Of a stretch of 64,000 nt of DNA, positions 12,345-46,359 are shown piece after piece; the stretch's first letter is position 1; the number at the start of each line of letters is the position of its first letter. The notes under the pieces were generated by a model. The model was not told the DNA's origin. It made no database searches and worked only from the letters and a program-made list of their open reading frames with translations. The translations under genes were made by a program, and so were the position numbers. The stretch covers positions 7,202 through 71,201 of the forward strand of contig JAFRPW010000027.1 in assembly GCA_017428945.1 (NCBI GenBank). The letters run 5' to 3'. This DNA comes from Bacteroidales bacterium. GTDB taxonomy: Bacteria; Bacteroidota; Bacteroidia; Bacteroidales; UBA932.

Positions 12345-12473
12345 GTCCACCAAAATGCCGTTTTTGGTGGACAAGTTGACGTTTTGGCCGGTTTGTCCAC
12401 CGATTTGGCGTTTTTGGTGGACAAGTTGGCGTTTTGGCGGGTTTGTCCACCGAAATGGGGTGTTTTGGTGGAT
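12345..12473. repeat. REP family A array, 3 hairpin units, 50-bp period
   Basis: GTCCAC at 12345, 12395 and 12445, each closed by GTGGAC/GTGGAT 16-17 nt later; conserved 22-nt linkers aagttg(a/g)cgttttgg(c)cgg(g)ttt. Confidence 0.92.
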
Positions 12474-12503
12474 GGGTGAGGTTTTTTTTTGTATTTTTGT
12501 ACC

Positions 12504-14558
12504 ATGTCAAAGAGAAAATCCAAGAGCCGCGGCGGCGAAAAGCGTGGCGGAAAGAAAAAAGCCCGTAAGTTTGTTCCCGAGTACATAGGAACGGCAAGAA
12601 TGTCCCGTGAGGGATTCATCTTCGTGGCCGTAGAAGGCCAGGAAGAGGACATCTACGTAAAAGCGTCCAAGACAAGGGGCGCGCTGAACGGGGATATCGT
12701 CAAGGTTGCCGTGACCCAGGAGAAGGACGGCCGGGCCAAGAAGCGCAGCGGTGAAATCATTGCCATCGTAGAGCGTTCCACTAAGCCGTTTGTGGGTATC
12801 CTTCATATTGTGGGAAAGCAGGCATGGGTGCTTATGAGCTCCAAGACCATGCCGTACGACATTGAGGTTCCCGTTCCGGAAGGCGCCGTCAAGGGCATGA
12901 AGGTAGCGGCCGTGGTGGACGGCTGGGAGCGCGGTGAAAGCGCTCCTCACGGGCACGTGGTGGACATCCTTGGCATGCCCGGGGAGAACGAGACGGAGAT
13001 GCACGCCATCCTGGCGGAGTTCGGCCTCCCCTACCGCTTCAGCAAGGAGGTGGAAGACGCGGCCGACGGCATTTCGGAAGAGATTACGGACAAGGACCGC
13101 GCCCACCGCAGGGACTTCCGCGGAACCCTCACTTTCACCATCGACCCCGCAGATGCAAAGGACTATGACGATGCCCTGAGCTTCCGCAAACTGGAAAACG
13201 GCAACTACGAGGTAGGCGTCCACATTGCCGATGTCTCCTGGTACGTCAAGCCCGGCAGCGCGGTGGACAAGGAGGCGCAGGAAAGGGGAACATCGGTCTA
13301 TCTTGTGGACCGCACCGTGCCCATGCTGCCGGAAAAACTGTCCAACAAGCTCTGCTCCCTGCGCCCCGGGGAGGAGAAACTCACCTTCAGCGCCGTCTTC
13401 GAGATTACCCCCCAGGCCAAGGTCTTCAACCCCTGGTTCGGCCGCACCAACATAGTCTCCGACTACCGCTTCGCCTACGAGCTGGCGCAGGAAATCATCG
13501 ACGCCGGACCCAAGGAGGCGATGGAGCGGGACTTCGGGGAAGGCAGCGAATGCGGCATAGTTCCGCCGGAGGTGAAAGAGGCCATCCTCGTACTGAACGA
13601 TATTGCCCTGAAGCTCAGGGAAAGGCGCTTCAAGGCCGGAGCGGTGAACTTTGACAGGCCGGAGATGAAGGTGGACATAGACGCCGACGGCAAGCCCGTG
13701 GGCGTGCACCAGAAGTTCTCCCGCGAGGCCAACTGGCTCATAGAGGAGTTCATGCTCCTTGCCAACCGCAATGTGGCGGAATACGTGGCCACCGGCGGAA
13801 AGATGGGCGGGAAAGCCCTGTCAAAGGCCAAGACCTTCGTATATCGTGTGCACGATGAGCCCAACATGGAAAAGATATCGGGCCTGAGGGACTTCGCCGG
13901 GCACTTCGGTTACAAAGTGGGCCAGCTGCAGGGAGGACGCGACGTTGCCGTGGCGCTGAACGGCCTCATGAAAGAGGCCGACGGCAAGCCGGAACTGGCC
14001 GCAATCCAGATCCTTGCCCTGCGCTCGATGGCAAAGGCCTGCTACAGCACGGACAACATAGGCCACTACGGCCTTGCGTTCCGCTTTTACACGCATTTCA
14101 CATCGCCTATCAGGCGATATCCTGACCTCATGGTGCACCGCCTCCTTGCCAAGTACATGGCCGGGGCCGATTCCCAGGACCTGGACTACTACACCCAGCA
14201 GTGCAAGCACGCCTCGGAGCGCGAGGTGGTGGCAGCGGAAGCAGAGCGTGAAAGCACCAAGTACAAGCTTGTGGAATTCATGCAGGACAAGATTGGCCAG
14301 GAGTTCGACGGCCATGTGTCCGGAATAACGGAATGGGGTATCTACGTTGAGATAGAGCCCACCAAGATCGAGGGCATGGTCCCCTACCGCACCATCCGCA
14401 GCGACTTTTACGACTACGACCCGGACAACTACCGCGCCGTGGGCAGGCGTACAAAACGCAAAATCCGCCTGGGAGATCCCCTGCGGATTCGCGTAAAAGG
14501 TACTTCTCTTGAGCAGAAACTGCTTGACTACGAGCTTGTAGAAGACAACATTTCCTAA
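12504..14558 (+). CDS. rnr: Ribonuclease R
   Basis: CSD N-terminus, RNB motifs FTIDPADAKDYDDALS and HFTSPIRRYPDL, C-terminal S1 domain. Confidence 0.95.
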   Translation: MSKRKSKSRGGEKRGGKKKARKFVPEYIGTARMSREGFIFVAVEGQEEDIYVKASKTRGALNGDIVKVAVTQEKDGRAKKRSGEIIAIVERSTKPFVGILHIVGKQAWVLMSSKTMPYDIEVPVPEGAVKGMKVAAVVDGWERGESAPHGHVVDILGMPGENETEMHAILAEFGLPYRFSKEVEDAADGISEEITDKDRAHRRDFRGTLTFTIDPADAKDYDDALSFRKLENGNYEVGVHIADVSWYVKPGSAVDKEAQERGTSVYLVDRTVPMLPEKLSNKLCSLRPGEEKLTFSAVFEITPQAKVFNPWFGRTNIVSDYRFAYELAQEIIDAGPKEAMERDFGEGSECGIVPPEVKEAILVLNDIALKLRERRFKAGAVNFDRPEMKVDIDADGKPVGVHQKFSREANWLIEEFMLLANRNVAEYVATGGKMGGKALSKAKTFVYRVHDEPNMEKISGLRDFAGHFGYKVGQLQGGRDVAVALNGLMKEADGKPELAAIQILALRSMAKACYSTDNIGHYGLAFRFYTHFTSPIRRYPDLMVHRLLAKYMAGADSQDLDYYTQQCKHASEREVVAAEAERESTKYKLVEFMQDKIGQEFDGHVSGITEWGIYVEIEPTKIEGMVPYRTIRSDFYDYDPDNYRAVGRRTKRKIRLGDPLRIRVKGTSLEQKLLDYELVEDNIS

Positions 14559-15523
14559 CAGCGGCTCACAAGGAGCTTCAAACCCTCTGAAGAGGGAATG
14601 CAACTGGCAGCAATGCGGCATGCGGGGACCAGGAGGGTCTCGCCTGCGTGGATGTGCTCGCCGTCAACAAGGCCGGAGCCCTGGACGCAGATGACCGTGA
14701 GGAAAGAGTCGTCCGTGGGCACGTCAAACGGCCTGGTAAGGTCATATAGCGTTGTTGTGAAGTACTTGCATTTCACAAGCTCCACCGGAGTATCTTTCAG
14801 AGGCTGGTAAGAGGTCTTGTAAGTTGGCAGGACACGGAAATCTATGGCCTGCAGGGCAAGCTCGGTATGCAGCTGGCGGGGCTTTCCGTCAAGGCCCGGC
14901 CGGCCGTAGTCCCAAATGCGGTAGGTAAGGTCCGATGTCTGCTGGATCTCTGCCAGAAGGCAGCCGCTGCATATTGCATGGATTCGGCCTGGGGGCAGGA
15001 AAAACACGTCCCCGGGCTGCACCTCATATCGGGCAAGTATATCCGTGATGGTGCCGTCGGCAACGCGCTGCTGGTACTCCTCCCGGGTAACATCCCTGGA
15101 GAGGCCGCAGTAAAGGGCGGCACCCGGGGCAGCGGCAATCACATACCACATTTCCGTCTTGCCACGGAACTCAGGGCCATGGACGCGCTTTGCCATTTCA
15201 TCGTCAGGATGAACCTGGATGGAAAGGTCGGAGTGTGCATCTATGAATTTTATCAGAAGCGGGAACTGGTCTCCGTACTCCTTGTAGACATGTTTTCCAA
15301 GCAACTGCTCCTTGTACACAGAGCCCAGCCAGATGGTACTGTGACCACGCAGAGGGCCGTTATCAACCAGAGTAAGGTGCTCCCCGTAACCGGAGATTTC
15401 CCAACTCTCCCCTATCTTTGGAAGGTTTCCGGAGACGCCTTTCCAAGGCAAAATTCTCTCCCCGCCCCACACCATGGTGCGGAACCAGGGAGAGAACCTG
15501 AGAGTGTAAAGCGGTGTCTCCAT
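14555..15523 (-). CDS. manA: Mannose-6-phosphate isomerase, class I
   Basis: VWGG, ESWEISG, FPLLIKFIDA, LSIQVHPDD, GKTEMWY, EIQQTSDLTYR. Confidence 0.9.
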   Translation of the reverse strand: METPLYTLRFSPWFRTMVWGGERILPWKGVSGNLPKIGESWEISGYGEHLTLVDNGPLRGHSTIWLGSVYKEQLLGKHVYKEYGDQFPLLIKFIDAHSDLSIQVHPDDEMAKRVHGPEFRGKTEMWYVIAAAPGAALYCGLSRDVTREEYQQRVADGTITDILARYEVQPGDVFFLPPGRIHAICSGCLLAEIQQTSDLTYRIWDYGRPGLDGKPRQLHTELALQAIDFRVLPTYKTSYQPLKDTPVELVKCKYFTTTLYDLTRPFDVPTDDSFLTVICVQGSGLVDGEHIHAGETLLVPACRIAASCIPSSEGLKLLVSRC

Positions 15524-15524
15524 C

Positions 15525-17529: not shown

Positions 17530-17628
17530 TGTAAAAGGTTCGGTTTTATTGGCCGAACCTTCCACGTTATTTGCTTTGCAGTGCCGTTTTATGTAAATGG
17601 TTCGGCAAAAAATACCGAACCTTTTACA
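17530..17628. repeat. REP family B element (REPIN/MITE-like), copy 1
   Basis: Perfect 15-bp terminal inverted repeats tgtaaaaggttcggt / accgaaccttttaca; each end also forms its own hairpin. Near-identical copy at 60329-60428. Confidence 0.88.
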
Positions 17629-22822: not shown

Positions 22823-24049
22823 CTATTTCCACCATGAGAGTACTGTAGACTCCACGGCATCGGCGGTTTCCTTGCCAACTGCTGTGACAAGGTTGGGGAA
22901 AAAGTCTATACCTGTCTTTTCCTCCAACTGGTCAATGGACATAATATACTCCTTGTAATTGCCTTCGGAGATGTTGGAGGTGTGGGGAAGCAGGAATCCC
23001 GCAGACATATAGCCCTTTGTACCTGTGGCGGCCGACTGGTTTCCACGGTACAGCAGAGCCTTGAAGTAGTAGGTGGGAATCTTTACGGCAAAGCCGCTCT
23101 TTGTTCCGCTTGTGGTTGTGGAATTGTCAAACAGACAGCCTGTAACCACGTATAATGTATCAGATTTGTCCGAGTAATTCCTCACTGCCTGCTCCAGGTT
23201 AGCCCAGATCCCGCAGTTGAAATCATAGTCCTGAGGAGTCATATTGGTAGGGACAAAGGTGGAGATGTTTGCCGATTCCGGTTTAAGCCGGTCTGCCGAC
23301 GGCAACTGATGGCCACGGGTCCAGCCCCCGCCATATGAGCCCTGGACGATATTGGGCTGTATGGAAACGGGCAGAAGGGCATCGTAACCCCAGGTGTTGG
23401 TACGGCTTCCGCTTCCCCTCAGAGACTTGTTCAAGGGATATGCGACCCATAGGGACATGTGCTCATCGTAATCCCAGTAGCAGGACCAGTTGCGCGTGCC
23501 GTCGACACCTTTGGAAGAGTATTTTCCGCCCGTCATGCTATGGACAAGCACATCGCGCCCGTCTCCGGCCTTGCATGCCGGCAACTCAAGCCAGTCCATA
23601 GGTGCCACATCATAACCATATTGTCCGATACTCTGCTGCTGTTCATCCTTCCCCAACTGCTTTATCACCGCTGTTGCTCTGACGCCGCCGGATGTGGCAA
23701 GGGCCAGGGTAACGCTGCGTGAAGCTCCGGGGTTCTCCCCATAGCGGAAACGGATATCGCCCTTGGAGCCGGTGCCTTGGGCGGGCTCAAGCGTAACCCA
23801 CGGTTCCACATCGGCAGGGTATTCCGTTTGCAGTGTCCACTCTCCGGAAGCGGTTATGGACACAAACATGCTGCCAGCCCCTGGTTCAAGGGTGGTTTTT
23901 CTGGGGACGACTGTTTCCTCCACCATATCATCGCCACCGCTTCCGGAGGTGCCATAAAGCAGCTCCGGAAGCTTGTCGCAGGAAGATATGCAGGCTGCCA
24001 TAGCCAATACCATGGCAGCCTTTAGGAGTTTAGACATGAACTTACTCAA
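22823..24049 (-). CDS. Lipoprotein: BACON domain plus DNA/RNA non-specific (NucA/EndoG-type) endonuclease
   Basis: Lipobox CISSC, BACON-like ITASGEWT..W, His-Me motif TRGHQLPSADR, NMTPQ, FNCGIWANLEQAVR, IPTYYFKALL. Confidence 0.9.
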   Translation of the reverse strand: MSKFMSKLLKAAMVLAMAACISSCDKLPELLYGTSGSGGDDMVEETVVPRKTTLEPGAGSMFVSITASGEWTLQTEYPADVEPWVTLEPAQGTGSKGDIRFRYGENPGASRSVTLALATSGGVRATAVIKQLGKDEQQQSIGQYGYDVAPMDWLELPACKAGDGRDVLVHSMTGGKYSSKGVDGTRNWSCYWDYDEHMSLWVAYPLNKSLRGSGSRTNTWGYDALLPVSIQPNIVQGSYGGGWTRGHQLPSADRLKPESANISTFVPTNMTPQDYDFNCGIWANLEQAVRNYSDKSDTLYVVTGCLFDNSTTTSGTKSGFAVKIPTYYFKALLYRGNQSAATGTKGYMSAGFLLPHTSNISEGNYKEYIMSIDQLEEKTGIDFFPNLVTAVGKETADAVESTVLSWWK

Positions 24050-26519
24050 AGAAGACTTCTACATTTACCAGACGGGTCTGGCCGGCAGCAGCCTGCAGAA
24101 TGACGGTGCTTGCACTTCCTTCCCATTTGATGGTCTCGTCAGATTTGGATGCAACTGCAGTACCTTCTGTGCCCTCAACTCCTGTCAAGTCAAGAATATA
24201 CTGGCCACTGTTCAGATTGTTAGCCTTGAAGGAAAGGGCCTTGATGGTCTTTCCTGAAGGGGCTTCAATGAAGAACACTGCGCTCTTATATACCCTCATG
24301 CTGTACTGGTCAGGAGTGACAGGATTTGAAGTGCTCTTATACTTGTAAGTGGCCACCTTGAATCCCTCAACAGTTGCAGAGAAGCCATTCTTGAGCACAT
24401 CGCCGCCGTTATCCTCTGCAAAAGAAGTCTCGTTGTTGAGTGGTATGACTATGGAACTGGCATTGCCGGAACTTGCCTTGGCCTGGACTATCATAACCTC
24501 GATTTCCTTGGTTGCCACATCTGCATCTGTCTTCACGATGAGATTATAGGTCACGACATTCTCCGTATCAGTATTGGCGGGGAAATTTGCAGTGATCTCA
24601 CCGGCGCCCTGACCTGAAGCGGGAGACAGAGTCAAAGCGTTAATGGCAGTACTGGCCGTCCAGGCAACGTTGCCGGTAACCTTGATCACCGCGCTGGTTG
24701 CACTTGCAGAAACGCTGATCTGTGCCTTCTCAACGCCGAATACGGGACCCTGGTCAATGCTGGTCTGGCCGTTGAGGCTGTAGATATAAGCCTCCTTGCT
24801 GGAGGTTTCGGGAGTTCCGCCATAGTTGGTGAGCTTACCGCAGATAATCACTTCGTCACCTACGGCGACCTGTGCATCTCCGTCTACCCAGGCACGATTG
24901 CCAAGATAGTAGACGCTATATACCTGGAACTGGGTTCCGTTGGTAGAGCCGTCTTCGGAGATGTAGAACGTAGCAGTGCCATACTGGGCGCTGAAGGTGT
25001 ATTTTACAGAGGAGATTTTACCCTTTACGTACACATCATCAGTCTTGCCCTTGTCTTCAAGTGCGGAAGCCACGTCGGAAGCGGCCTTGGGGTTATAAGG
25101 ACTCTCAAGTGTGCCGTTGCCGGTTGCAGTCTCATCCTGGGTCTGACCTTCGGTGAAGGAAAGAATGTAGGCATTTACGACCTCGTGCTGCTGTTTGTTA
25201 GCATAGTAATCATACTTGCCGGCCAGCGTTACGGTACCGCCGTCCTTAATCTTGGAGCTCCACTCTGACTTGTTGTCAACGCTATACACGTAGATAAGAC
25301 CGGTTGCGTCAGTGAGGTCGAAGCTGCAGTAATTGGCGTTAAAGCCGGAGACCTTACCGGAAAGCTTGTAATAGTTATCTTTATCGGCAGCAGAAATAAA
25401 CTCTGCGACAGTCTTGGCGGGAACATTGTTGTAGTCGATTTCCTCGCCGCCCTGTACGTCAAGGATGTAGCCGTTTACCATTTCAGGAGTACCGTTGTAA
25501 TCCTTGAATACGCCAGCAATGGTGACGATGCTACCCTTCTTGACCTTATCCTGAACGGCAGACCAGTTGGATACACCGTAAATCTTAACTGTACCGGTAG
25601 CATCCTTGAGGTCGAAGTTGCCATACTGGGTATTGATACTGCCGGTAACTTCACCGGTAAGCTTATAAGGAGTCTTGGTATCTGCAAGTGCAATGAATTC
25701 AGCAACGGTCTTGGCCTCAGCCTTGGTGTAGTCTACCTCCTGACCACCAGTTGCCACGGTTTCACCATTGAGACTGTAGAGATAAGAACCCTTCTGTACT
25801 GTCTCCGGAGTGTTGCCCATATAGTTCATGACCTCGCCATAAACCACGGCTACATCACCTACAGCAATCTGGGTGTTGCCTTCCTGCCACTTCTTGTTTT
25901 CAAGATAGTAAACCCTGTAAGCAACAAACTTGGGGTCGGTAGCGTTTCCGTCATCAGTAATGGTGAAATTGCCATTGCCGTATTCCGCTCCGAAGGGCTC
26001 CTTTATGGAAGCGATCTTGCCCTTTACATAGAAAGGACCAACCTTATCGTACTCAGTAGTGCTGGTCCATGTGAGCCTTGATACAACTTCAGCAATCTGG
26101 GCTACATTGTAAGGCTTTTCCTTGGAGCCGTCGCCTTCTTCAGCAACGAATGTGCCCTGGCTGCCCTTCTGCTTTACCTTCAGGGTTGCCTTGACCATGC
26201 CGCCGCCGGCTGCAAAGACGATATCAATCTCGCGGTCAAAGCCGGTATTCTCTTCAACGGACACGGAAACGGTCTGAGGATCCTTGGATGCATTGCCGCT
26301 TTCCTGACCAAGGGCTACCCACTTGCCGGCAAGGTCTGTGGTTACGCTCCAGTTAAGGGTTGCATTCAGAGTAATTGTCTGGGAGCCCTCACCTGCCTCA
26401 AAATTGAGTTCGGTAGGATTGATATTGATCATGGGGGCACCAAGTTCCTCAATCTCCTCGCAGGCTGTGAACGCAAAAGCGCCCGCAATCACTGCCATGA
26501 ATAAATGTCTCAGTTTCAT
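24042..26519 (-). CDS. Surface lipoprotein: BACON domains plus four OB-fold-like repeats
   Basis: Lipobox AFTAC followed by acidic EEIEE. Repeats of (Y/V)KG(K/E)..QYG..F.(I/L).D..G....Y.V. Start reassigned to MKLRHLF. Confidence 0.75.
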   Translation of the reverse strand: MKLRHLFMAVIAGAFAFTACEEIEELGAPMININPTELNFEAGEGSQTITLNATLNWSVTTDLAGKWVALGQESGNASKDPQTVSVSVEENTGFDREIDIVFAAGGGMVKATLKVKQKGSQGTFVAEEGDGSKEKPYNVAQIAEVVSRLTWTSTTEYDKVGPFYVKGKIASIKEPFGAEYGNGNFTITDDGNATDPKFVAYRVYYLENKKWQEGNTQIAVGDVAVVYGEVMNYMGNTPETVQKGSYLYSLNGETVATGGQEVDYTKAEAKTVAEFIALADTKTPYKLTGEVTGSINTQYGNFDLKDATGTVKIYGVSNWSAVQDKVKKGSIVTIAGVFKDYNGTPEMVNGYILDVQGGEEIDYNNVPAKTVAEFISAADKDNYYKLSGKVSGFNANYCSFDLTDATGLIYVYSVDNKSEWSSKIKDGGTVTLAGKYDYYANKQQHEVVNAYILSFTEGQTQDETATGNGTLESPYNPKAASDVASALEDKGKTDDVYVKGKISSVKYTFSAQYGTATFYISEDGSTNGTQFQVYSVYYLGNRAWVDGDAQVAVGDEVIICGKLTNYGGTPETSSKEAYIYSLNGQTSIDQGPVFGVEKAQISVSASATSAVIKVTGNVAWTASTAINALTLSPASGQGAGEITANFPANTDTENVVTYNLIVKTDADVATKEIEVMIVQAKASSGNASSIVIPLNNETSFAEDNGGDVLKNGFSATVEGFKVATYKYKSTSNPVTPDQYSMRVYKSAVFFIEAPSGKTIKALSFKANNLNSGQYILDLTGVEGTEGTAVASKSDETIKWEGSASTVILQAAAGQTRLVNVEVFFE

Positions 26520-26593
26520 AGTATAGATTAGTGTTGATTGTTTCTGATTCACAAATATAACAATCTTTTTCGGTTATTCAATTTTTACATAGT

Positions 26594-26622
26594 AAAAACG
26601 GCTCCCGGAGTCCGGGAGCCGT
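26594..26622 (-). terminator. Intrinsic terminator inside the TBDT/nuclease cluster
   Basis: 11-bp perfect stem acggctcccgg/ccgggagccgt with a 3-nt loop, followed by a T-run on the minus strand. Confidence 0.75.
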
Positions 26623-26644
26623 AGAAAGAGAGTTCTAAAGACTC

Positions 26645-29881: not shown

Positions 29882-29896
29882 GATATTACGCTGTTA

Positions 29897-33367: not shown

Positions 33368-33444
33368 AAAGTTTTGATGATAAATATTGATACGATAGTA
33401 TATTTCTACCAAAAAACCGTTGCGAAGTTACTACTTTTTTATGA

Positions 33445-34858: not shown

Positions 34859-35674
34859 TTATTTTTGATTTGGCAAAACCCAGTGTATGGTTACTCCGTC
34901 CCTTTCCATTCCGCGGAACCATGTCATCTGCCGCTTGGCAAACTGATGGATGGCGTTTCCAAGCAACATGACCATGTCATCGTAACTGTACTTGCCAAGA
35001 AGATACTCCGTGACAAACTTGTACTCAAGGCCATAGTATATCAGATCCTCCGCGGGGATAGTTTTCATCAGATTCTCCACCTCTTCCACCAGGCCCTCCT
35101 TCAGGCGCTCTTCCAGCCTGACGTCAATTCTCCGAACCCTTTCTTCACGGGAGACGAGAGTACCTATAAAAAATGTTTTCCCGGGCAGCCGTCCCGGATC
35201 CACTCCGTTACCTTTCTCAAACTTATACGCACGTGTAACCGATTCTATATAAAGGCCGGAGCCGCCGCATATGATAGGGATGACACCCCTGTCTTTCACC
35301 TCTTGGAAAGCCCTGGCAAACGCCTCCTGATACTGATAGATATTAAACTTTGCACCTGCGGGAGCAATGTCTATGAGGTGGTATGGAACATCACCGTACT
35401 CGGCCAGGTCTTTCCCCGTGCCGATATCCATGCCACGGTATACCTGCCTGGAGTCTGCAGAGAGAATCTCCCCGCGCAGTTCCTTTGCCAGCTGCACGGC
35501 ATACCTGGTCTTGCCGGAAGCAGTGGGGCCAAGGACACAGATGCAATCATACTCACCAGCCTGCAGTGAGCGGTGCAACGCCTCGATGTCTATGGTTTCA
35601 GGCTCCGGCATCCTGGCCATAGGGGGAATCCCAGGCCTGTCCGGCAAGAGCTGTGTCCTGTTCCACTTGTTCAT
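34859..35674 (-). CDS. miaA: tRNA dimethylallyltransferase family protein (MiaA paralog, internally shortened)
   Basis: P-loop GPTASGKT, ADSRQVYRGMDIGTGK, CGGSGLY, HQFAKRQMTWFR. TATTTTTG -7 box at 35679-35686 on the minus strand. Confidence 0.85.
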   Translation of the reverse strand: MNKWNRTQLLPDRPGIPPMARMPEPETIDIEALHRSLQAGEYDCICVLGPTASGKTRYAVQLAKELRGEILSADSRQVYRGMDIGTGKDLAEYGDVPYHLIDIAPAGAKFNIYQYQEAFARAFQEVKDRGVIPIICGGSGLYIESVTRAYKFEKGNGVDPGRLPGKTFFIGTLVSREERVRRIDVRLEERLKEGLVEEVENLMKTIPAEDLIYYGLEYKFVTEYLLGKYSYDDMVMLLGNAIHQFAKRQMTWFRGMERDGVTIHWVLPNQK

Positions 35675-35714
35675 GCCACAAAAATACCAAAAAAACCACT
35701 ATCTTTGCAATCCC

Positions 35715-35793
35715 ATCCACCAAAACACCCCATTTCGGTGGACAAACCCGGCAAAACGGCAACTTGTCCACCAAAAACGCCAAATCGGTGGAC
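35715..35793. repeat. REP family A array, 2 hairpin units (opposite orientation to the 12345 array)
   Basis: ATCCAC 35715..GTGGAC 35743 and GTCCAC 35766..GTGGAC 35793. Confidence 0.9.
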
Positions 35794-35803
35794 AAGCAGC
35801 ATT

Positions 35804-36259
35804 ATGCCTAAGGCAAAGAGCAGCATACAGGTAAAAAACCGCAGGGCCTCGTTCGACTACGAGTTCCTGGAGACCTATACGGCCGGAATCCAGCTGGTGG
35901 GGACGGAAATCAAATCCATCCGCGCCGGCAAGGTGTCGCTACAGGATGCGTATTGCTATTTTGCAGGCAATCAGCTGTTTGTGAGGGGCATGAACATTGC
36001 CCAGTACCACTGGGGCAGTTGGGGACAGCATGAACCGGCACGTGACCGCAGGCTGCTTCTTACAAAGCGCGAGCTGCGTCACCTTTTCCAGGCGGACAAG
36101 CAGAAAGGTCTTACCATAGTTGCCGTAAAGCTTTTCATTGCCGACAATGGATATGCAAAACTTGTGATTGCCTTGGCAAAGGGCAAGCATGAGTGGGATA
36201 AACGCCAGTCCATTAAAGAAAAGGATACCCGCAGGGAGCTGGAGCGCAGCGGTTATTAG
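35804..36259 (+). CDS. smpB: SsrA-binding protein SmpB
   Basis: KNRRASFDYEFLETYTAGIQLVGTEIKSIR, RRLLLTKRE, KGKHEWDKRQSIK. The true start is 35804; the longer ORF call is a read-through of the REP array. Confidence 0.96.
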   Translation: MPKAKSSIQVKNRRASFDYEFLETYTAGIQLVGTEIKSIRAGKVSLQDAYCYFAGNQLFVRGMNIAQYHWGSWGQHEPARDRRLLLTKRELRHLFQADKQKGLTIVAVKLFIADNGYAKLVIALAKGKHEWDKRQSIKEKDTRRELERSGY

Positions 36260-38183: not shown

Positions 38184-40796
38184 ATGACATCGAAAGAAAT
38201 AAGGCAGAAGTTTCTGGACTTCTTCGCTTCAAAGGGACACACCGTTGTTCCCTCCGCCCCCATGGTCATAAAGAACGACCCCACCCTCATGTTCACCAAC
38301 GCTGGCATGAACCAGTTCAAGGATATATTCCTGGGCAACGCCGCCCCCAAATTCCCGCGTGCGGCAGACTCCCAGAAGTGCCTCCGCGTGAGCGGCAAGC
38401 ACAACGACCTTGAGGCAGTGGGCCATGACGGACGCCACCACACCATGTTCGAGATGCTTGGCAACTGGAGCTTCGGAGACTACTTCAAGACAGAGGCCAT
38501 AGACTGGGCATGGGAACTCCTCACGGAGGTTTACAAGATAGACAAGACAAAGCTTTACGCAACCGTATTCGAGGGCTCCGAGGAAGACGGCACCGCCCTT
38601 GACACGGAGGCCCAGGCCGCATGGCTGAGGCATCTCCCCTCAGACCACGTTCTCACCGGAAACAAGCACGACAACTTCTGGGAAATGGGCGACACCGGCC
38701 CCTGCGGCCCCTGCAGCGAGATTCACATCGACCTCCGTCCCGACGAGGAAATTGCGAAGATTCCCGGCCGCGAGCTCGTGAATACGGACAACGACGACGT
38801 CATAGAGATATGGAACCTGGTGTTCATGCAGTATGAGCGCAAGGCCGACGGTCACCTGGAATCCCTCCCGGCAAAGAACATCGACACCGGCATGGGCTTC
38901 GAGCGCCTCTGCATGATTCTCCAGAACAAGAAGAGCAACTACGAGACCGACGTCTTCAGCGGCCTCATCGGCAAGGTAGAGGAATTCTCCGGCCACAAGT
39001 ACGCAGAGGGCGGCAACGTAGAGGTTGCCATGCGCGTGATCGCAGACCACATCCGCGCCATCGCCTTCTCCATCGCCGACGGCCAGCTGCCTTCCAACGT
39101 GAAGGCCGGCTACGTCATCCGCCGAATCCTCCGCCGCGCCGTCCGTTACGGCTACACCTTCCTTGGATTCACGGAGCCTTTCCTCTGCCGCCTCATCCCC
39201 CAGCTGGTTGCCGATATGGGAGAAGCCTACCCGGAACTCCCCGCCCAGGAAAAACTCATCGTCAGCGTAATCCGCGAAGAGGAAAACGCCTTCCTGCGCA
39301 CCCTGGACCGCGGTATCCGCATGCTTGAGGACAACATGGCCCGCAACGCCGCCACCAAGGTGGTCTCAGGAGTGGACGCCTTCGTCCTTTACGACACCTA
39401 CGGCTTCCCCATCGACCTCACCGAACTCATCGCCGCGGAAAAGGGCTACACCGTAGACCTTGAAAGCTTCAATGTAGAGCTCGGCAAGCAGAAGGAGCGC
39501 GCCCGCAACGCTACCGCCAACGAGTTCGGAGACTGGACCGTCTTCTCCGATGACACCGACGTCGAATTCCTCGGCTACGATGTTCTCTCCGTAGAAGGCG
39601 CACGCCTCCTCAAGCAGCGTACCGTGAAGCAGAAGAACAAGGAGCTCTTCCAGCTGGTCTTTGACCGCACCCCCTTCTACGCAGAGATGGGCGGTCAGGT
39701 AGGCGACACCGGCTACATCCAGGGCGCCGACGGCGAAAAGATAGCCATCCTCAACACCGTCAAGGAGAACAACCTTACCATACATCTGGCAGAGCGCCTT
39801 CCCGAAGAGGGCGGCATCTTCACCCTTGTAGTGGACCAGGAGCGCCGCCAGCGCATCATGAACAACCATACCGCTACCCACCTTCTCCACCAGGCCCTCC
39901 GGGAAACCCTGGGAACACACGTGGAGCAGAAAGGCTCCTTCGTGGGACCGGACTATTTCCGTTTCGACTTCTCCCACTTCCAGAAAGTCACGGACGATGA
40001 GCTCCGCACAGTAGAACGCCGTGTCAACCAGCTCATAAGGGCCGATTACCCTCTCTGCGAAAAGCGTGACGCCCGCCTGGAAGAAGCCCGCGCAATGGGT
40101 GCGATGGCCCTGTTCGGAGAAAAGTACGGCGATGTTGTACGCGTAGTGCGCTTCGGAGACTCCGTAGAGCTCTGCGGCGGCACTCACACCCGCAGCACCG
40201 GCACCATCGGCCTGTTCAAGATCAAGGCGGAAAGCGCTGTGGCTGCCGGCGTACGCCGTATCGAGGCTCTCACCGGCGCAGGCGCGGAGCAGGGCGTCGA
40301 GGTCATGGAAGACCTCCTGAAAGGCCTTAAGAGCCTGTTCAACAACGTCCCGGACCTCACCGGTGCCATAGAGAAGCTGGTTGCAGAGAATGCCGAGGCC
40401 AAGAAACAGCTGGAAGAGGTTGCGAGCGAGAAGGCCGCAGCCCTTGCAGCCCGCCTGGAGGCCGCTGCCGTCGAGATGAACGGCATCAAGGTGGTCCGCT
40501 TCGACAGCTCCATTGACCCGGCCATCGCCAGGAACGTGGCACTCATGTTGCAGAAAAAGATGGAGAACTTTGTGCTGGCAGGCGCCTTTGCATACGCAGA
40601 GAAGCCAAACCTGGTGCTCATGTACTCCAACGACCTCGTTGCCAAGGGCAAGAACGCCGGTAAGGACATCCGCGAAGCCGCAAAGCTCATTCAGGGCGGC
40701 GGCGGCGGCCAGCCCGGTCTTGCCACCGCAGGCGGCCGCCTCACCGAAGGACTCCCTGCCGCACTTGACAAACTTGTAGAAATCGCCATAGCTTGA
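38184..40796 (+). CDS. alaS: Alanine--tRNA ligase
   Basis: [28 protein letters not shown], editing motifs HTATHLLH and ELCGGTH, DHHA1 GGGGG end. -7 box TATCTTTG at 38156-38163. Confidence 0.98.
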
Positions 40797-43297
40797 AGAA
40801 ATTAGACCAGTTCTTGTTGAAGTCTTTCGTAGGACCGTTCATCGCGATCCTGGCGATTGTTACGTTCATACTGGTCTTGCAGTTTCTTTGGCTGTACATA
40901 GACGAGCTGGTTGGTAAAGGCTTGGAGCTCAAGGTTATACTTGAGTTCCTCATGTGGGGTAGCTGCCAGACCCTGCCGCTGGCCATACCGCTGGCAACGC
41001 TGCTCAGCTCCATGATGACGCTGGGGCAGATGGGAGAGCAGTTCGAGCTCACCGCCATCAAGGCATCGGGCATTTCCCTCACGAGGGTGCTCTTCCCCAT
41101 GGTCATAGTGGCCATCCTCATTTCCATCGGCGCCTTCTACATCACGGACCGCCTGGTTCCCTATTCCATCAACCAAATCTACACCATGAGGGACGATATC
41201 GGCCGCACAAAGTCGGAGATAAAAATCCCCACCGGAACCTTCTACGACGGCATCGAGGGCTACATCCTCCGCGTCGAGGACAGGGACAAGAGCACCGGCA
41301 TGATGTACAAGATACAGGTTTACGACCACACCGTGGGCAAAGGCAACACCCGGATAACGGTAGCGGACAGCGGCGTCATAAAGATGTCCAAGAGCAAGGA
41401 CTACCTCACTTTCCAGCTCTACGACGGCACCAACTACCAGGAGGACAACAAACGGAAGTACAGGGACACCACCCTGGCGCTCCAGAGGGTACATTTCCGC
41501 AGCCAGGAACTGGTGATTCCGCTGGAGAACTACGCTTTCCACCACTCCGACAGCGCCCGGTACGGTGAACAGGTCCGCTCCATGAGCCTCAAGGATCTCC
41601 GGCACGGGCACGATTCCCTGTCCAATCTGGTGGCAGAGGGTGCAGACAAGCATCTGAAGGAGTTCTCCAACCAGAACAGCCTCACCTACCGCGCCCAGCT
41701 GGACACATCATGGCGGGAGAAGGCATCGACAACCCTGCCGCTCCCCGGAGAGAGGAAGTGGACATCCCTGAAGGATAAGCTCAGGGGCTACGAGAACGCC
41801 GCCACCGCCGCCCGCCAGTTCGAGAACCTCCTCCACAGCCAGGGCATGGAAGGCTACAATTACACCAACCTGATTCGCCGCACGGACGTGGAGATTTGGA
41901 AGAAGTACGCCACGGCGCTCGCCTGCCTGCTGCTGTTCTTCATCGGCGCACCGGTTGGAGCCATCCTCAAAAAAGGCGGTCTGGGTACTCCTGCCATTAT
42001 CTCACTGCTGTTCTTCGTGCTGTACTGGGTGGTGGACATCACCGGCGAGCGCCTTGGAAACAACGGCACCGTGACGCCATTCGTGGGCAAATTCATATCG
42101 GCCTTCGTGCTGGCGCCGATAGGAGGGCTGCTTACTGTCAAGGCGGTGCAGGACAAGAGCATCTTCAACGTTGACGGCCTCAAGATATGGATAAGGAAAG
42201 CCAAGAGTAAACTCATTCGCATGTTCAGGAAAACAAGAATAGTGTACATGGGCACTCCGGAGTTCTCCGTAGGCCCTCTGGACGGTCTTCTGAAGGCCGG
42301 ATACAAAGTAATCGGAGTAGTTACCGCCCCGGACAAACCTTCCGGACGCGGTCTCAAGGTCAGTGAATCGGCGGTGAAGAAATACGCCGTGGAGAAAGGC
42401 ATTCCGGTTCTGCAGCCGGAAAAACTCAAGGATCCGGAATTCCTCATGGCCCTGAGCAACTGGAAGGCCGATCTGTTTGTAGTGGTAGGCTTCAGGATGC
42501 TGCCGGAAGCGGTCTGGAAAATGCCCAAGCTGGGCACATTCAACCTCCACGCCGCCCTGCTTCCGCAGTATCGCGGCGCCGCCCCCATCAACTGGGCCGT
42601 CATAAACGGAGAGAACATCACCGGTGTAACCACCTTCATGATAGACAGCAGGATAGACACCGGCGGCATCATACTCCGTTCAGAATGCCGCGTGGAGCCC
42701 ACGGACACCGCCGGAACCCTTCACGACAAGCTCATGGCAATAGGTACCGACCTGGTTGTCGAGACTGTCGAGGGCATAATCCAGCACAATATTGAGCTCC
42801 GCGTCCAGCGCAGTTTCATCCAGGGTGACGAGCTCCTCAAGCCCGCACCCAAGCTCACCCGGGAACTCCAGCACATAGACTGGAATGCCCCCACCCGCAC
42901 CGTTTACAACCTTGTCCGCGGCCTTTCCCCCTTCCCCTGCGCTTTTACTGAGTTGGTACCTGGAGGAGAGGCTGCGCCCTCCGTCATTCCCGGCTCCGCT
43001 TCCTCCGTCATTCCCGGCTCCGACCGGGAATCTCCCCTCCAGCTGAAGGTGTACTTCGGAGAGATGCGCTATGACCTCCACGCCGCCCCCGGAACCGTGC
43101 TCAGCGACGGCAAGACATACTTTGCCATAGCCACCCAGGACGGGGCCCTGGCCATCACGGACCTCCAGCTCGCCGGCAAGAAGCGCATGGACGTCAAGTC
43201 CTTCCTCCTTGGCTTCCGTAACCCCACATCGTACACCACCACCCCCGGCACCTCCTCCTCCGAGCTCGCCAAAGCCGCCCCCGTGGAGGACAATTAA
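40793..43297 (+). CDS. fmt: LptF/LptG-family permease fused in frame to methionyl-tRNA formyltransferase
   Basis: Residues 1-~476 are YjgP/YjgQ-like ([44 protein letters not shown]). From codon 477 (ATG 42221): [37 protein letters not shown]. No stop codon between them. Confidence 0.88.
42978..43031 (+). repeat. In-frame palindromic insertion in Fmt (24-bp tandem duplication plus ATTCCCGG-N6-CCGGGAAT hairpin)
   Basis: cctccgtcattcccggctccg at 42978 and 43002; 8-bp perfect stem 43010-43017/43024-43031; encodes [18 protein letters not shown]. Confidence 0.7.
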
Positions 43298-43305
43298 CCC
43301 CCCTT

Positions 43306-43515
43306 CCGTAGACAAACCCCGGTTTTCGCCTACTTATCCACCAAAAACGCCAAATCGGTGGACGAACCCGGCAAAACCCCGACTTATCCACCAAAACACC
43401 CCTTTTCCGTGGACAAACCTGGCAAAACGTCAACTTATCCACCAAAACACCCCATTTCCGTGGACAAACCCGGCAAAACCCCAACTTGTCCACCAAAAAC
43501 GCCAAATCGGTGGAC
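43306..43515. repeat. REP family A array, 4 full hairpin units plus a half unit
   Basis: (A/G)TCCAC at 43336, 43386, 43437 and 43488, each closed by GTGGAC; 50-51-bp period. Confidence 0.93.
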
Positions 43516-43545
43516 GGATGGGGGAAAATGATTATCTTTGCTGAT

Positions 43546-44187
43546 ATGAAACGCATTGTCATATTATGTAACGGGGCTTTCCCCACGGAACCGTTTCCGC
43601 TGTTCCTTCTGGACAATGCGGAAGGCGTGGTTTGCTGCGACGGCTCGGTCATCAAGTGGCTGGCGTACAATCCCCAGGCTGCGCCTATGGTGATTGTCGG
43701 GGATATGGACTCTCTGCCTGAGGAACTGAGGGTGCGGTTTTCCGGCATTGTTTACCATGAGACAGAGCAGGACTACAATGACCTCACAAAAGCCATGCGT
43801 TGGGTTCTCCGTGAGCATCCGGAGGTTCAGGAAATAACCATCCTGGGCGCAACTGGCCTTAGGGAAGACCACACCATCGGCAACCTTGGCCTTCTCATGG
43901 AATACACCCGCCTCTTTGACCTTGGGGACCGCAAGGTGACCATGGTGAGCGACTTCGGGACCGCCTTCGCCATAACAGACAGCTGCGACCTCCACCTGGG
44001 TGAAGGCCGCAGAGTATCGCTTTTCAGTGCCGACAATACGTTGAAGATATCCTCAACGGGGCTTCAGTGGCCCACGGACGATGTTGTCTTTGACGCCTGG
44101 TGGAAGGCAACCTTGAACCGGACTACGGAACCAATCGTCATGCTGCGGTTCAATCACCCTTCCGCGGCACTTGTAATTACAGACTGA
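43546..44187 (+). CDS. Thiamine pyrophosphokinase
   Basis: VVCCDG, IVGDMDS, EQDYNDLTKA, GATGLREDHTIGN, GLQWP. Start MKRIVIL follows TATCTTTG (43533-43540). Confidence 0.88.
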   Translation: MKRIVILCNGAFPTEPFPLFLLDNAEGVVCCDGSVIKWLAYNPQAAPMVIVGDMDSLPEELRVRFSGIVYHETEQDYNDLTKAMRWVLREHPEVQEITILGATGLREDHTIGNLGLLMEYTRLFDLGDRKVTMVSDFGTAFAITDSCDLHLGEGRRVSLFSADNTLKISSTGLQWPTDDVVFDAWWKATLNRTTEPIVMLRFNHPSAALVITD

Positions 44188-45037
44188 AATTCCGGCTGGC
44201 AAACGGCAGGGCGGTTCTGAGAGATACGTGCCAGTACTCCCAGTTGTGTACTCCGTCCCTTACACGGAATTCCGCCTTTACTCCTTTCTCACGCATCTTG
44301 GCATAGAAGGCTGTGCTGAGATCGAAGATGAAGTCGTCGTCTCCGCAGTCCACGAACCACTTTACTGTTCGCAGGTTTTCGAGGGTGGCGTCATCGGCCT
44401 TGTCAAGGAAATCTATGGCAGAATGCCGGCTCACTGCGCGCTGGGTGAAGGTGAACTTGGTGGTGGGCTGCTTCTGAGTGCCTGAACTGACCTCATTCAT
44501 CTTATTATCCAGCCACGGGCTCATTGCATAGCAGCTGGAGAACATGTCCGGATGGCGCTGGCAGTACACTATTGAGCCGCCGCCTCCCATGGAAAGACCC
44601 ATTATCGCTCGCGCCTGCTTGCTTCCGCCGCAATTGAATTTTTCCTCTACATTTGGAAGGAATTCAGTGAAGAAATAGTTCTCATACGGCCATTCAGGCA
44701 TGTTGAAGTATCCGTTGGGATAGTTGTGGATGTCCTTGTCTCCGGCATTGGGCATTACAATCACAACTGGCACGAGTTCTCCTGAGCGGATTAGCTCATC
44801 GGCAACCCAGCTTATCCTGCCAAGATTGTCCCAGGCGGTGTAGTCGTCCGAGAGACCATGGAGGAGGTATATCACGGGATAGTGATTGGCGGCATCGTAC
44901 CCTTCGGGCAGATACACGTTGTACTTCTGGTCTGCATCCAGCTTGCTGCTGTGGATGCTCTCCGTAACGATACGGCTCTGCGCCGCGGCAGCAACTGCCG
45001 CCGCCAAAAGCGCCACAATGACGATAATGCGTTTCAT
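44177..45037 (-). CDS. Secreted alpha/beta-hydrolase esterase (CE1/Fes-like)
   Basis: Signal peptide, YPVIYLLHG, nucleophile elbow GLSMGG, DCGDDDF, GVHNWEYW. The true start is MKRIIVI (45037); the longer ORF call is REP read-through. Confidence 0.88.
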   Translation of the reverse strand: MKRIIVIVALLAAAVAAAAQSRIVTESIHSSKLDADQKYNVYLPEGYDAANHYPVIYLLHGLSDDYTAWDNLGRISWVADELIRSGELVPVVIVMPNAGDKDIHNYPNGYFNMPEWPYENYFFTEFLPNVEEKFNCGGSKQARAIMGLSMGGGGSIVYCQRHPDMFSSCYAMSPWLDNKMNEVSSGTQKQPTTKFTFTQRAVSRHSAIDFLDKADDATLENLRTVKWFVDCGDDDFIFDLSTAFYAKMREKGVKAEFRVRDGVHNWEYWHVSLRTALPFASRNFSL

Positions 45038-45104
45038 ATCAGCAAAGATAATCATTTTCCCCCATCCGTCCACAGATTTGGCGTTTTTGGTGGATAAGTT
45101 GGGG
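45026..45104 (-). repeat. 79-bp inverted copy of 43479-43557 (REP hairpin, -7 box and start codons)
   Basis: The reverse complement matches 43479-43557 with 2 mismatches. Confidence 0.92.
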
Positions 45105-45310
45105 GTTGGTGGATACAAAAGCCAAAGTATCAAATCCGGAACCTTCAGAAACGTATAATTTTTTCGCAATGCCCTACAGATATCCAGGAGAGCGTTTTTG
45201 ATAGTGTTTCTGAATTTCAATCGGTGGAAAGACACACAATCGTTTAAAAAGATTATACGAATCTGAAGGTGAGTTTTCCGGAGAGCTTTTAAATTTGGCA
45301 AAAACTGCTT

Positions 45311-46222
45311 ATGGCAACGATACAAGAGGAACTGTTCCAGCGTTCCAAACCATTTTTCCACTATTGTTCCCTGCCATTCGAGGATGCTCTTCTATACGAT
45401 GACGACAAACAGATGGGCGCAGTCCTGAACTTCATTGCTGTGGCGCTGATGCATGTCCCGGGCTGCAGGCTTCTGGCTTTTGCAGTGATGTCAAACCACA
45501 TTCACCTGGTGGTGGAGGGAGAACGTCCTTACTGCGACGTCTTTATAGGAAAGCTTACCGAGTTGCTGGATAATTATTATCGATATAACGGGAAGGCCCG
45601 TCTTAGCGGGCACATCGAATTTGAGGCAATCCACATTGACTCTTTAAGGATGCTTCGGGCAGAGATAATTTACACTATCCGCAACCCGTTCGTCGTAAGG
45701 ACCGATGTGAATGTATTTGCTTGCCCTTCCACCAGCGGATATCTGTACTTCAACCCTATGCTTAAGCGTGAAGGCATACCCGCTTCGAACCTCCGGGGAA
45801 GGGCCCTGAGGGACTTCCTGCATACACGCAACGTGATTGCGCTGACTGACAGGTTCTATGTAAAAGACGGCGCTGCGCAGCCCTGGAGTTTCGTGGATTA
45901 TGAAAGAGCAATGTCGTTCTTCCCCAGCGCCAGGGACTTCGTACTAGGGACCATAAGAAATGTCGAAGGACAGGTAGAGATAGCCAACAGGCACGGAGAA
46001 CCAGTCTCTCTTGCCGACCAGGAAGTTCTTTCACTGGCATATCGTCTGTGCGGAGAACGATATGGTAATGTGAAACTCTCAAACCTTGGCACCACGGAAA
46101 GAATGCAGCTTGGCCTGAAGTTGAAAAACGAGTACCGCGTCTCCAACGGCCAGATTGCCCGTACTTTGGGGCTGTCCCTCAAGGACGTGAACGCCATGTT
46201 CCCCCTTTCCGCCAAGATTTAA
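45311..46222 (+). mobile_element. HUH/Y1 tyrosine transposase, REP-associated (RAYT/TnpA-REP-like), with a C-terminal HTH
   Basis: FAVMSNHIHLVV (HUH), IIYTIRNP (catalytic Tyr, YxxxNP), STSGY, C-terminal VSNGQIARTLGLS helix-turn-helix. Flanked by family A hairpins on both sides; TAAATTTG -7 box at 45290-45297. Confidence 0.82.
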
Positions 46223-46230
46223 GCCAGGCC

Positions 46231-46359
46231 ATCCACCAAAACCCCGCATTTCCGTGGACAAACCCGCCAAAACGCCAACTTGTCCACAAAAAACGCCAAA
46301 TCCGTGGACAAACCCCGAAAAACGGGCACTTGTCCACGGAAAACGTCATTTTGGTGGAT
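46231..46359. repeat. REP family A array, 3 hairpin units, directly downstream of the RAYT-like gene
   Basis: ATCCAC 46231, GTCCAC 46282 and 46332, closed by GTGGAC/GTGGAT at 46254, 46304 and 46354. Confidence 0.92.

Follow-up and report, generated by a model that had tools for sequence, protein, structure and literature searches.

The window analysed here is a 64-kb (64,000-nucleotide) stretch of a Bacteroidales genome (GenBank assembly GCA_017428945.1, contig JAFRPW010000027.1, positions 7,202 to 71,201), which carries five intergenic arrays of short hairpin units and, between the fourth and fifth of these arrays, a plus-strand gene (45311..46222) for a 303-aa Y1 HuH transposase homologue. 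We refer to it as the RAYT-like gene, after the tyrosine transposases (RAYTs) associated with repetitive extragenic palindromes (REPs). The genes around the arrays are ordinary housekeeping genes, encoding an S41 protease, RNase R, MiaA, SmpB, a joint LptFG-Fmt open reading frame (ORF), thiamine pyrophosphokinase (TPK), an esterase and a pyridoxal phosphate (PLP) enzyme. TAnnTTTG boxes stand upstream of window genes, and the relatives of this genome found in public data are ruminant-gut Bacteroidales.

Each unit consists of an 8-10-bp stem (TTGTCCACC/GGTGGACAA), a 14-15-nt A/C-rich loop and a conserved linker (about ACCCGGCAAAACGNCAAC), with TCCAC/GTGGA as the invariant core of the stem. A scan with the pattern TCCAC-N16/17-GTGGA gave 13 matches in the window, all within the five arrays, versus 0.12 +/- 0.33 expected from dinucleotide-preserving shuffles (n=100). 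These are exactly the 13 units in five intergenic arrays of the initial annotation, which had also correctly placed them in both orientations (the C-rich strand is the minus strand in arrays 1 and 4 and the plus strand in arrays 2, 3 and 5). Its conserved 6-bp arms are indeed conserved, while their length was set too short, as the stems of internal units span 8-10 bp. The distance from GTGGA to the next TCCAC is a constant 24 nt, so that loop length decides whether the period is 50 or 51, and Tandem Repeats Finder (TRF) reports a period of 50-51 for arrays 1, 3 and 5 (12345-12472, 43332-43498 and 46232-46358). To the two recurring loop types described previously, caaaaacgccaaatc (T1, 6 units) and caaaacacccc(a/t)tttc or a close variant (T2, 5 units), we add a third that had been overlooked, (c/g)(a/g)aaaacg(g/t)cattttg (T3, 2 units). 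Folded as single-stranded DNA, one T1 unit has a free energy (dG) of -9.0 kcal/mol (z = -6.35); for a two-unit array the energy ranges from -16.8 to -18.6 kcal/mol, with z between -4.1 and -4.8. The feet of the hairpins read CTTG joined to TCCACC on one side and GGTGGA joined to CAAAC on the other, with CCA joined to TCCACC at array ends.

Array 1 (12345..12473, minus strand) comprises three units (12346-12371, 12396-12421 and 12446-12472), whose loops on the minus strand are T2, T1 and T3-like, and it lies between the stop of the tail-specific protease (S41/PDZ, 10706-12334) and the start of RNase R (12504-14558). Array 2 (35715..35793, plus strand) has two units (T2 at 35716-35742 and T1 at 35767-35792) between the divergent miaA (34859-35674, minus strand) and smpB (35804-36259, plus strand), and a TAnnTTTG promoter box, TATCTTTG (35700-35707), is directed into it. 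Array 3 (43300..43515, plus strand) begins with a 3' half unit (~43300-43336) and continues with four units (T1, T2, T2 and T1 at 43337-43362, 43387-43413, 43438-43464 and 43489-43514), directly after the stop of the lptFG-fmt ORF (40793-43297) and 31 nt 5' of the TPK gene (43546-44187). Array 4 (45068..45117, minus strand), between the esterase start (45037, minus strand) and the RAYT-like gene, is a single unit (45069-45094) with a linker remnant and a solitary arm, GGTGGATAC. Array 5 (46231..46359, plus strand) holds three units (T2-like, T1 and T3 at 46232-46258, 46283-46308 and 46333-46358), beginning 9 nt past the RAYT-like stop and ending 9 nt short of the stop of the convergent PLP enzyme gene (46368-47732, minus strand). 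A sixth array at 1133..1224, to which no strand is assigned, belongs to a variant subfamily with two units of the form GGCCACG-ttttcccgcgtttc-CGTGGCC (period 52, ~98% mutual identity); its counterpart in the metagenome-assembled genome (MAG) RUI178, from a sister species, is GCCACaaaaacgcccaaat(a/g)cGTGGC, also of period 52 (L107, 6757-6834). All six arrays of the window are intergenic. The earlier repeat inventory was thus right about its five arrays and lacked this variant array, the transposase gene and an array-bounded inversion described below.

Within an array the units share loop and linker polarity, and array ends are frequently CCATCCAC...GTGGATGG, while internal junctions are CTTGTCCAC...GTGGACAA. 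The reverse complement of array 1 is 84% identical to array 5 over 142 nt; these two arrays are therefore copies of one three-unit composite. Its two ends are inverted copies of each other (32/42 and 29/42; 32/42 for the ends of array 5), and only the last unit of the composite reads inverted. The loops had been described as interchangeable modules shuffled between arrays, a description that gives way to one of multi-unit blocks copied whole, as in arrays 1 and 5. Gene callers and ORF lists yield spurious ORFs across the arrays (in the window at 43209-43544 and in the 46219-36 region), and a 204-aa spurious 'protein' in L199 (4921-5535) is composed wholly of an 8.9-unit array.

The RAYT-like ORF has no Pfam match at threshold and came to light in a homologue search with its 303-aa product, which returned 54 relatives, one of them called "REP element-mobilizing transposase RayT" by JGI. 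The tyrosine-motif pattern Y[IVL]x[QNYLA]NP did not match the protein, in which the motif reads YTIRNP. Its HuH motif is SNHIH (aa 61-65) and its catalytic tyrosine is Tyr121 within IIYTIRNPF (segments LLAFAVMSNHIHLVVEG and EIIYTIRNPFVV), and an alignment of 32 homologues shows no variation at H63, H65, Y121 or N125. An HuH motif together with a YxxxNP tyrosine are the class 2 Y1 transposase motifs as tabulated (PMC6006769). The NCBIfam model NF047646 (REP_Tyr_transpos) matched 22 of the 32 relatives at E <= 0.01 (best E 1e-7), and a sequence-profile search of the PDB gave weak IS200 TnpA matches at the HuH motif only (E about 0.15). The AlphaFold2 model of the protein (predicted local distance difference test, pLDDT, 90.5; predicted template modelling score, pTM, 0.84) has as its best PDB fold match by Foldseek 4er8_A (E 6e-4, prob 1.0, 143 columns), a structure of the REP-associated tyrosine transposase of E. 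coli in complex with a REP hairpin, followed by the TnpA proteins of IS200, ISDra2 and IS608, all with prob 1.0. Residues ~150-303 form a second conserved domain (~150 aa) with a probable helix-turn-helix (HTH) at its end; this C-terminal domain has no significant fold match, the only hit being a 45-column, weakly similar HTH of sigma-region-4 type. A profile of the family collected 349 clusters (50% identity) at E <= 1e-30 and 1069 at E <= 1e-10, nearly all ~300 aa long.

In the four depth runs that contain this genome (three metagenomes and one run labelled RNA-Seq, X10, with flat, DNA-like depth) the gene stands at single-copy level (23 versus 26 for its flanks in X1, 73 versus 80 in X2), and its neighbours are the same in the window, in L202 (72% identity) and in L103 (RUI178). 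A conserved block upstream of the gene (45238..45300, plus strand) consists of AATCGTTTAAAAAGATTATACGAATCTGAA followed by a TAnnTTTG-type box, TAAATTTGGCAAAAA, and is kept in L202 and L195. It shows dyad symmetry, AATCGT..AAAAAGATT(T)ATACGAAT, ~50-70 nt before the start codon, and L204 has a perfect 9-bp palindrome, GAATCGTAA..TTACGATTC, at the corresponding position. This block may be an operator and promoter through which the C-terminal HTH autoregulates the gene.

The DNA around homologues was compared in nine protein clades, the window's own and eight further ones, with protein identities to the window of 39-100%. In 9/9 clades the gene has tandem hairpin units, repeating every 50-52 nt, at its flanks, and their stems differ by clade. 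Next to the window clade (arrays 4 and 5, TCCAC/GTGGA core) stand P0005 (72%; L202/L203, syntenic with the window; GTCCAC, 3 units after the stop) and P0010 (63%; L195/L197; GTCCAC, 9 or 8 units upstream and 4 downstream). The other clades are P0027 (44%; L199/L200; GTGCAC, 5.6 units upstream and 8.9 downstream), P0050 (39%; L204; GGTGCA/TGCACC, three arrays), P0039 (45%; L205/L206; CCGCAC/GTGCGG, about 3 upstream and 3-4 downstream), P0041 (44%; L207; AGCAC/GTGC, 3.5 downstream), P0044 (43%; L208/L209; TTCCAC/GTGGAA, upstream and downstream) and P0035 (43%; L210/L211; CGCGTCAG/CTGCGCG, 2 or 1 downstream). Seven distinct stems thus occur over the nine clades, with one stem throughout the clade of 63-100% identity. 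RAYT loci contain 12 TRF arrays of period 48-54 in 110 kb, against a background of one such array, of unrelated sequence, in 1.33 Mb around alaS (80 Bacteroidales contigs); a unit scan of the alaS loci found only a 2-unit variant, in L124. Within the GTCCAC family the stems show compensatory changes (TCCATC/GATGGA in Muribaculaceae, GCCAC/GTGGC and ATCCAC/GTGGAT), and between some species the linkers are fully diverged while the ~51-nt period stays. Such tracking of the protein lineage by the flanking stem is the hallmark of co-evolution between RAYT and REP.

The repeat family is also found well beyond the window. A pattern scan of one genome per species placed it in six Bacteroidales MAGs and one unclassified MAG, with about seven chance matches elsewhere; in the unclassified "uncultured bacterium" MAG (L098) a stricter unit scan recovered no unit. 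In RUI178, at least 7 contigs carry units, which show the two loop types of the window, and the further MAGs with units are Tb.RUG.374, RGIG7459, RGIG7696, Candidatus Cryptobacteroides LOHA39 and one Muribaculaceae MAG. Many of the MAG matches lie <200 nt from a contig end, as expected of repeats that break assemblies. Summed unitig depth over array bins was 12-30x that of unique flanks (up to ~95x) in the four runs, for instance 631 and 314 versus 26 in X1, and contigs exit the arrays into many different flanks. The earlier expectation of many copies beyond the window is supported by the RUI178 contigs, the five other Bacteroidales MAGs and the raised array depth. A scan of viral contigs with a loose unit pattern gave single chance-level matches only and no arrays, and so no sign of a phage-borne element.

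Two outcomes had been named in advance as fatal to the repeat family, copies confined to the window and collapse artefacts of assembly. Units occur outside the window, and independent assemblies give the same arrays: the intergenic lengths at arrays 1, 2, 3 and 5 are identical in independent ENA assemblies from other samples, and that at array 1 is unchanged in the independent assembly L194. Lookups of the RAYT-like protein and the S41 protease gave one place each, similar places being merged, and an exact-protein lookup of the window TPK returned no record. Logan unitigs break within the arrays, and the unit counts of the longer arrays therefore rest on short-read assemblies and scaffolds.

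Unit number at orthologous sites, which had been proposed as a check, differs by strain and by species. At the miaA-smpB site the window, L108, L110 and L112 carry 2 units, whereas L109 and L111 carry 1 and are shorter by exactly 50 nt between GGTGGACAA repeats. Upstream of the RAYT gene, L195 has 9 units versus 8 in L197, the extra unit being identical to its neighbour, and L208 versus L209 and L210 versus L211 likewise differ by one unit. The view that units are gained and lost as monomers is thereby upheld, with exact one-unit (50-52 nt) strain differences in four systems. Between species, the window has 4.5 units at the array 3 site, against 3 in L202 and 2 in L103 (RUI178), and the array 4 site has 1 unit in the window, 0 in L202 and 2 in RUI178, while in L202/L203 the RAYT stop is followed by an orthologous 3-unit array, as with array 5. 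The fmt-TPK site is empty in L114 and L115 (alanyl-tRNA synthetase, AlaRS, 85% and 82% identical), where the two genes overlap or lie 8 nt apart, and we conclude that the array and its promoter-bearing tail were therefore inserted into a former operon junction. No target-site duplication is visible at this single filled-versus-empty comparison, in which the sequences are too diverged for a firm answer.

The invariant HuH and tyrosine residues, the fold match and the flanking repeats with co-varying stems together point to a REP/RAYT-type system, and the arrays are very probably the REP component of a REP/RAYT system ("REPtron") native to ruminant-gut Bacteroidales, with its transposase encoded in the window. 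Several observations weigh against this conclusion. The units lack the GT[AG]G or CGTC foot typical of most REPs. The window protein scores E 0.14 and 12.8 bits against Pfam Y1_Tnp (cut-off 23) and has no NCBIfam match, and all NF047646 matches of its relatives fall below the 80-bit cut-off; the protein is, by these profiles, a remote relative and not a member of the curated RAYT/Y1 models. Enzyme activity, hairpin binding and cleavage are attributed to it by homology, and a high genome-wide copy number, which for REPs typically exceeds 100, is suggested by depth and the RUI178 contigs. Arrays stand at the same orthologous sites in species ~80% identical in DNA, and movement must therefore be slow. 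For the identical neighbouring units of L195 and the exact 50-nt differences, slippage alone is an equally good explanation.

These last observations lead to the rival according to which the arrays are plain minisatellites that arose by slippage or unequal recombination, with the Y1 protein unrelated or a regulator. All polymorphisms seen are indeed exact one-unit differences bounded by the direct repeats GGTGGACAA, the extra L195 unit is a perfect copy of its neighbour, and arrays persist at orthologous sites between species. However, slippage cannot seed new loci, whereas near-identical composites lie 34 kb apart in the window (arrays 1 and 5, 84%) and units occur on many RUI178 contigs and at a site that is empty in relatives; nor would it account for flanking arrays with co-varying stems in 9/9 clades when the background holds about one such array per 1.3 Mb. 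We therefore regard plain minisatellites as improbable. We rate as marginally less probable still that the units are phased double-stranded binding sites, for DnaA or for the C-terminal HTH of the 303-aa protein, serving titration, nucleoid structure or regulation. The DnaA-box consensus is TTATCCACA; the arm TT(G/A)TCCAC(C/A) resembles it, in this clade only, with 7-9/9 matches (window 43331-43341 and 46279-46288), and some units hold a perfect TTATCCACA (L090 6179). Moreover, the arms are far more conserved across species than loops and linkers, the ~51-nt period is kept despite unrelated linkers, and the conserved C-terminal domain of the protein weakly resembles an HTH of sigma-region-4 type. 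Inter-arm distances of 15 to 17 nt would, however, rotate half-sites on a duplex, the sister-clade stems (GTGCAC, CCGCAC, CGCGTCAG) keep the architecture while being unlike a DnaA box, and the arrays are strain-polymorphic, absent from close relatives and also located between convergent gene ends, where nothing is regulated. Readings of the arrays as a DnaA-box cluster or of the arms as parS-like were set aside on the variable arm spacing and the unrelated sister-clade stems. We judge the DnaA-box match coincidental, although dozens of near-boxes per genome could still titrate DnaA.

Selection of the hairpins as RNA elements (3'-end stabilisers, terminators or 5' untranslated region (UTR) structures) is very unlikely in our estimate. 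Arrays 1, 3 and 5 start 9-11 nt past stop codons, the promoter box directed into array 2 would place that array in the smpB 5' UTR, and units with other flanks appear in metatranscriptome contigs at depths up to 19. Yet the units occur in both orientations relative to transcription (between co-directional genes, array 1 is antisense-type and array 3 sense-type), they have no U-tract and loops of 14-15 nt, and a cognate transposase would go unexplained. Scans of the window with Rfam at the gathering threshold and for tRNA gave no matches. The supporting RNA contigs are themselves unstranded and may contain DNA: the RNA-labelled runs consist of unstranded Logan contigs, and the true metatranscriptomes cover the locus thinly and show units of other loci in RNA contigs. 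An RNA role may remain as a secondary effect, as for E. coli REPs. Hardly any credence is left for assembly artefacts or a degenerate CRISPR-like array, an idea to which the breaking of short-read unitigs in the arrays and the superficially CRISPR-like layout of a palindromic 26-28-nt repeat and a 22-24-nt spacer lend some colour. The recovery of the same arrays in several independent assemblies from different samples argues against an artefact. A CRISPR array was rejected, as conservation lies in the "spacers" and variation in the loops of the "repeats", and the arrays are scattered with 1-4 units; no cas domains were found among the flanking genes.

Besides copying and loss of units, the arrays bound a rearrangement of the genes between them. 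An 85-nt inverted repeat has its left arm at 43476..43560 (plus strand), covering the last array 3 unit, the tail GGATGGGGGAAAATGAT, the promoter box TATCTTTG and the ATG and first codons (MKRI) of TPK, and its right arm at 45023..45107 (minus strand), covering the array 4 unit, the same tail and promoter and the ATG and first codons (MKRI) of the esterase. The two arms are 95% complementary, in keeping with the opposite orientations of arrays 3 and 4. In the sister species RUI178 the 1.46-kb TPK-esterase segment enclosed by the arms has the opposite orientation, as L103 1124-2778 aligns plus/plus to window 43430-45089 and both flanks align plus/minus. In relatives TPK starts with MNS(I/V) versus MKRI in the window, and the 5' end of the window TPK was probably overwritten by exchange during an array-mediated inversion. 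The promoter-bearing tail GGATGGGGGAAAATGATTATCTTTG is common mainly to orthologous and paralogous TPK and esterase starts; being mostly limited to these starts, it is not established as a general part of the element. Separately, in L113 (AlaRS 86% identical) the divergent miaA-smpB pair has been inverted as a single segment with respect to the adjoining genes (L113 1264-2582 versus window 34878-36258), and no array lies between the inverted genes.

The mechanism that we propose for the REP/RAYT system is modelled on the IS200/IS605 and E. coli RAYT paradigm (PMC3479197, PMC6006769). The protein would be a Y1 HuH single-strand DNA endonuclease/transposase, whose likely substrate is the single-stranded hairpin formed by the arms TTGTCCACC/GGTGGACAA. 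It would cleave at fixed distances from the hairpin through Tyr121 and an HuH-bound metal and then rejoin strands, copying units of 50-51 nt (a hairpin with its 24-nt linker), or small groups of them, to intergenic positions, frequently beside existing units, with constant-period arrays as the outcome. Resident arrays would then gain or lose single units by slippage or unequal exchange between the 9-nt arms, or by further insertion, and oppositely oriented arrays would serve as substrates for inversion. Which strand is recognised, where it is cut, and how far array growth is due to transposition or to slippage are, like catalytic activity itself, the parts of this scheme that we infer. RNA effects such as termination, stabilisation and 5' UTR structure are possible secondary consequences. 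The period of 50-52 is kept over nine clades with unrelated stems and linkers, which suggests that the enzyme dictates unit length. On this basis we tentatively, and with more doubt than conviction, raise the idea that the 50-52-nt unit is itself a transposable element reduced to one hairpin, whose length reflects the geometry of the two-domain RAYT, namely how far the two cleavage sites lie from the hairpin, and that repeated adjacent insertion produces the head-to-tail arrays.

The window holds further sequence features of its own. A second, unrelated hairpin repeat, a 95-nt element at 17530-17624 and 60330-60424 (copies 84% identical), has two hairpins of the form GGTTCGG-N9-CCGAACC per copy (4 matches versus 0.03 expected by chance) and may be another REP-like family with its own partner. 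The ORF at 40793-43297 joins LptF/LptG permease and methionyl-tRNA formyltransferase domains in 834 aa and is also called in independent assemblies (834 and 833 aa in L193 and L202); it is either an unusual fusion or a case of a missed internal start. In its fmt part, at 42980-43036, 24 nt are directly duplicated in frame (TCCGTCATTCCCGGCTCCG...); the duplication, which has a hairpin, ATTCCCGG..CCGGGAAT, at its end, lies within the Formyl_trans_C region (122 residues for a 100-position model). Unitigs break at this duplication and depth rises 4-8 fold, which implies further copies elsewhere in the metagenomes, and the duplication has the look of a repeat inserted within the gene. On the minus strand at 24042-33412 lie three very large ORFs (836, 1078 and 1171 aa), the first two of which (24042-29881) share several internal repeated segments, and Pfam marks on the matching L108 gene identify the large ORF beside metK as a TonB-dependent receptor.

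REP/RAYT systems, most familiar from E. coli and Pseudomonas, are among the few persistent, vertically inherited partnerships of a repeat and an enzyme in bacteria, and mechanistic work on them comes nearly all from Proteobacteria. The locus described here very probably offers a compact, testable counterpart in Bacteroidales, a dominant gut order, with substrates readable beside each gene and an enzyme family that present Pfam and NCBIfam thresholds leave as "hypothetical". The natural stem-swap variants across clades are a ready-made specificity experiment, and the constant ~51-nt period over unrelated sequences points to a structural ruler in the enzyme. In practical terms, the arrays break short-read rumen MAG assemblies, create spurious ORFs, split operons and mediate inversions, and their one-unit polymorphisms could serve as strain markers. 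If the reading of the unit as a single-hairpin mobile element were true, REP proliferation would here follow a mode distinct from the inverted REP doublets known as REPINs and from bacterial interspersed mosaic elements (BIMEs), driven by at least 349 (up to about 1000) unannotated protein clusters, with operon breakage, promoters supplied or adjoined, and inversions as side effects.

Among the closest known systems is that of E. coli, with REPs and BIMEs with its RAYT (TnpAREP, YafM; PDB 4ER8), which shares with the present one a single-copy Y1 HuH gene flanked by cognate extragenic hairpins, the intergenic dispersal of these hairpins and their clustering with regular linkers, and which provides the best structural match. 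In contrast to the E. coli enzyme, the protein here has ~300 aa, an extra conserved C-terminal domain and a sequence similarity below family thresholds, and its hairpins have no GTAG foot and a large 14-15-nt loop. BIMEs are described in PMC2817692 as alternating in REP orientation, whereas the arrays here are mostly head-to-tail at a fixed 50-52-nt period without alternation. The initial annotation of the family as BIME/REPIN-like therefore holds as to the REP/RAYT kind, given the cognate transposase gene, and fails as to the alternation of BIMEs. With the REPIN-RAYT systems of Pseudomonas (Bertels and Rainey; PMC3116915, PMC5581495) the present system shares a vertically inherited single-copy RAYT, co-diversifying repeats and multi-hairpin replicative units, and the 3-unit composite here also has inverted terminal units; a REPIN, however, is a doublet of two inverted REPs in one long hairpin, while the arrays here have 1-10 units, mostly in the same orientation.

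Within the phylum, the Bacteroidetes TnpAY1 subclass 2.6/RAYT group 5 (Quentin et al. 2018, PMC6006769) has in common with the window protein an NHxH HuH motif, YxxxNP and flanking structures without GT[AG]G that recur in the genome. That subclass is described as ~179 aa long, with WQ and YIH[QN]NP motifs and 'atypical secondary structures' (PMC6006769), in contrast to ~300 aa, no W motif and Y(V/T)IRNP here, a distinction drawn by description only; a GTCCAC-type repeat is absent from the supplementary REP table of the same paper. For GTAG families, clusters of REPs in head-to-tail order have been mentioned (Di Nocera et al. 2013, PMC3733652), but the families of that study are GTAG- or CGTC-tagged and no fixed period across unrelated stems is described for them. 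In the literature on RAYT and REP in Bacteroidales we found no description of this protein family or of ~51-nt periodic arrays. BrickBuilt, a MITE/minisatellite of Porphyromonas gingivalis (PMC4596501), is likewise an intergenic repeat of a Bacteroidales species that contains a tandem array, has small inverted ends and brings promoter elements next to genes; its 23-nt bricks have no spacers, neither a hairpin-per-unit design nor a cognate Y1 gene is reported for it, and there is no sequence relation to the present units. IS200/IS605 elements (IS608, ISDra2) share the catalytic fold and the recognition of sub-terminal single-strand hairpins, but there the mobile gene occurs in multiple copies, each with a single left and a single right hairpin, whereas here the gene is single-copy, syntenic and array-flanked and the hairpins have proliferated without it. 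An ordinary IS200/IS605 insertion sequence was accordingly rejected on single-copy depth, synteny and the presence of arrays instead of single ends. Most features of a REP/RAYT system are thus present, two being absent, the GT[AG]G/CGTC foot and a score above the curated family threshold. What sets the system apart from known REPtrons is a two-domain RAYT family of ~300 aa (at least 349 clusters), hairpins without a GTAG foot and periodic arrays that are mostly head-to-tail.

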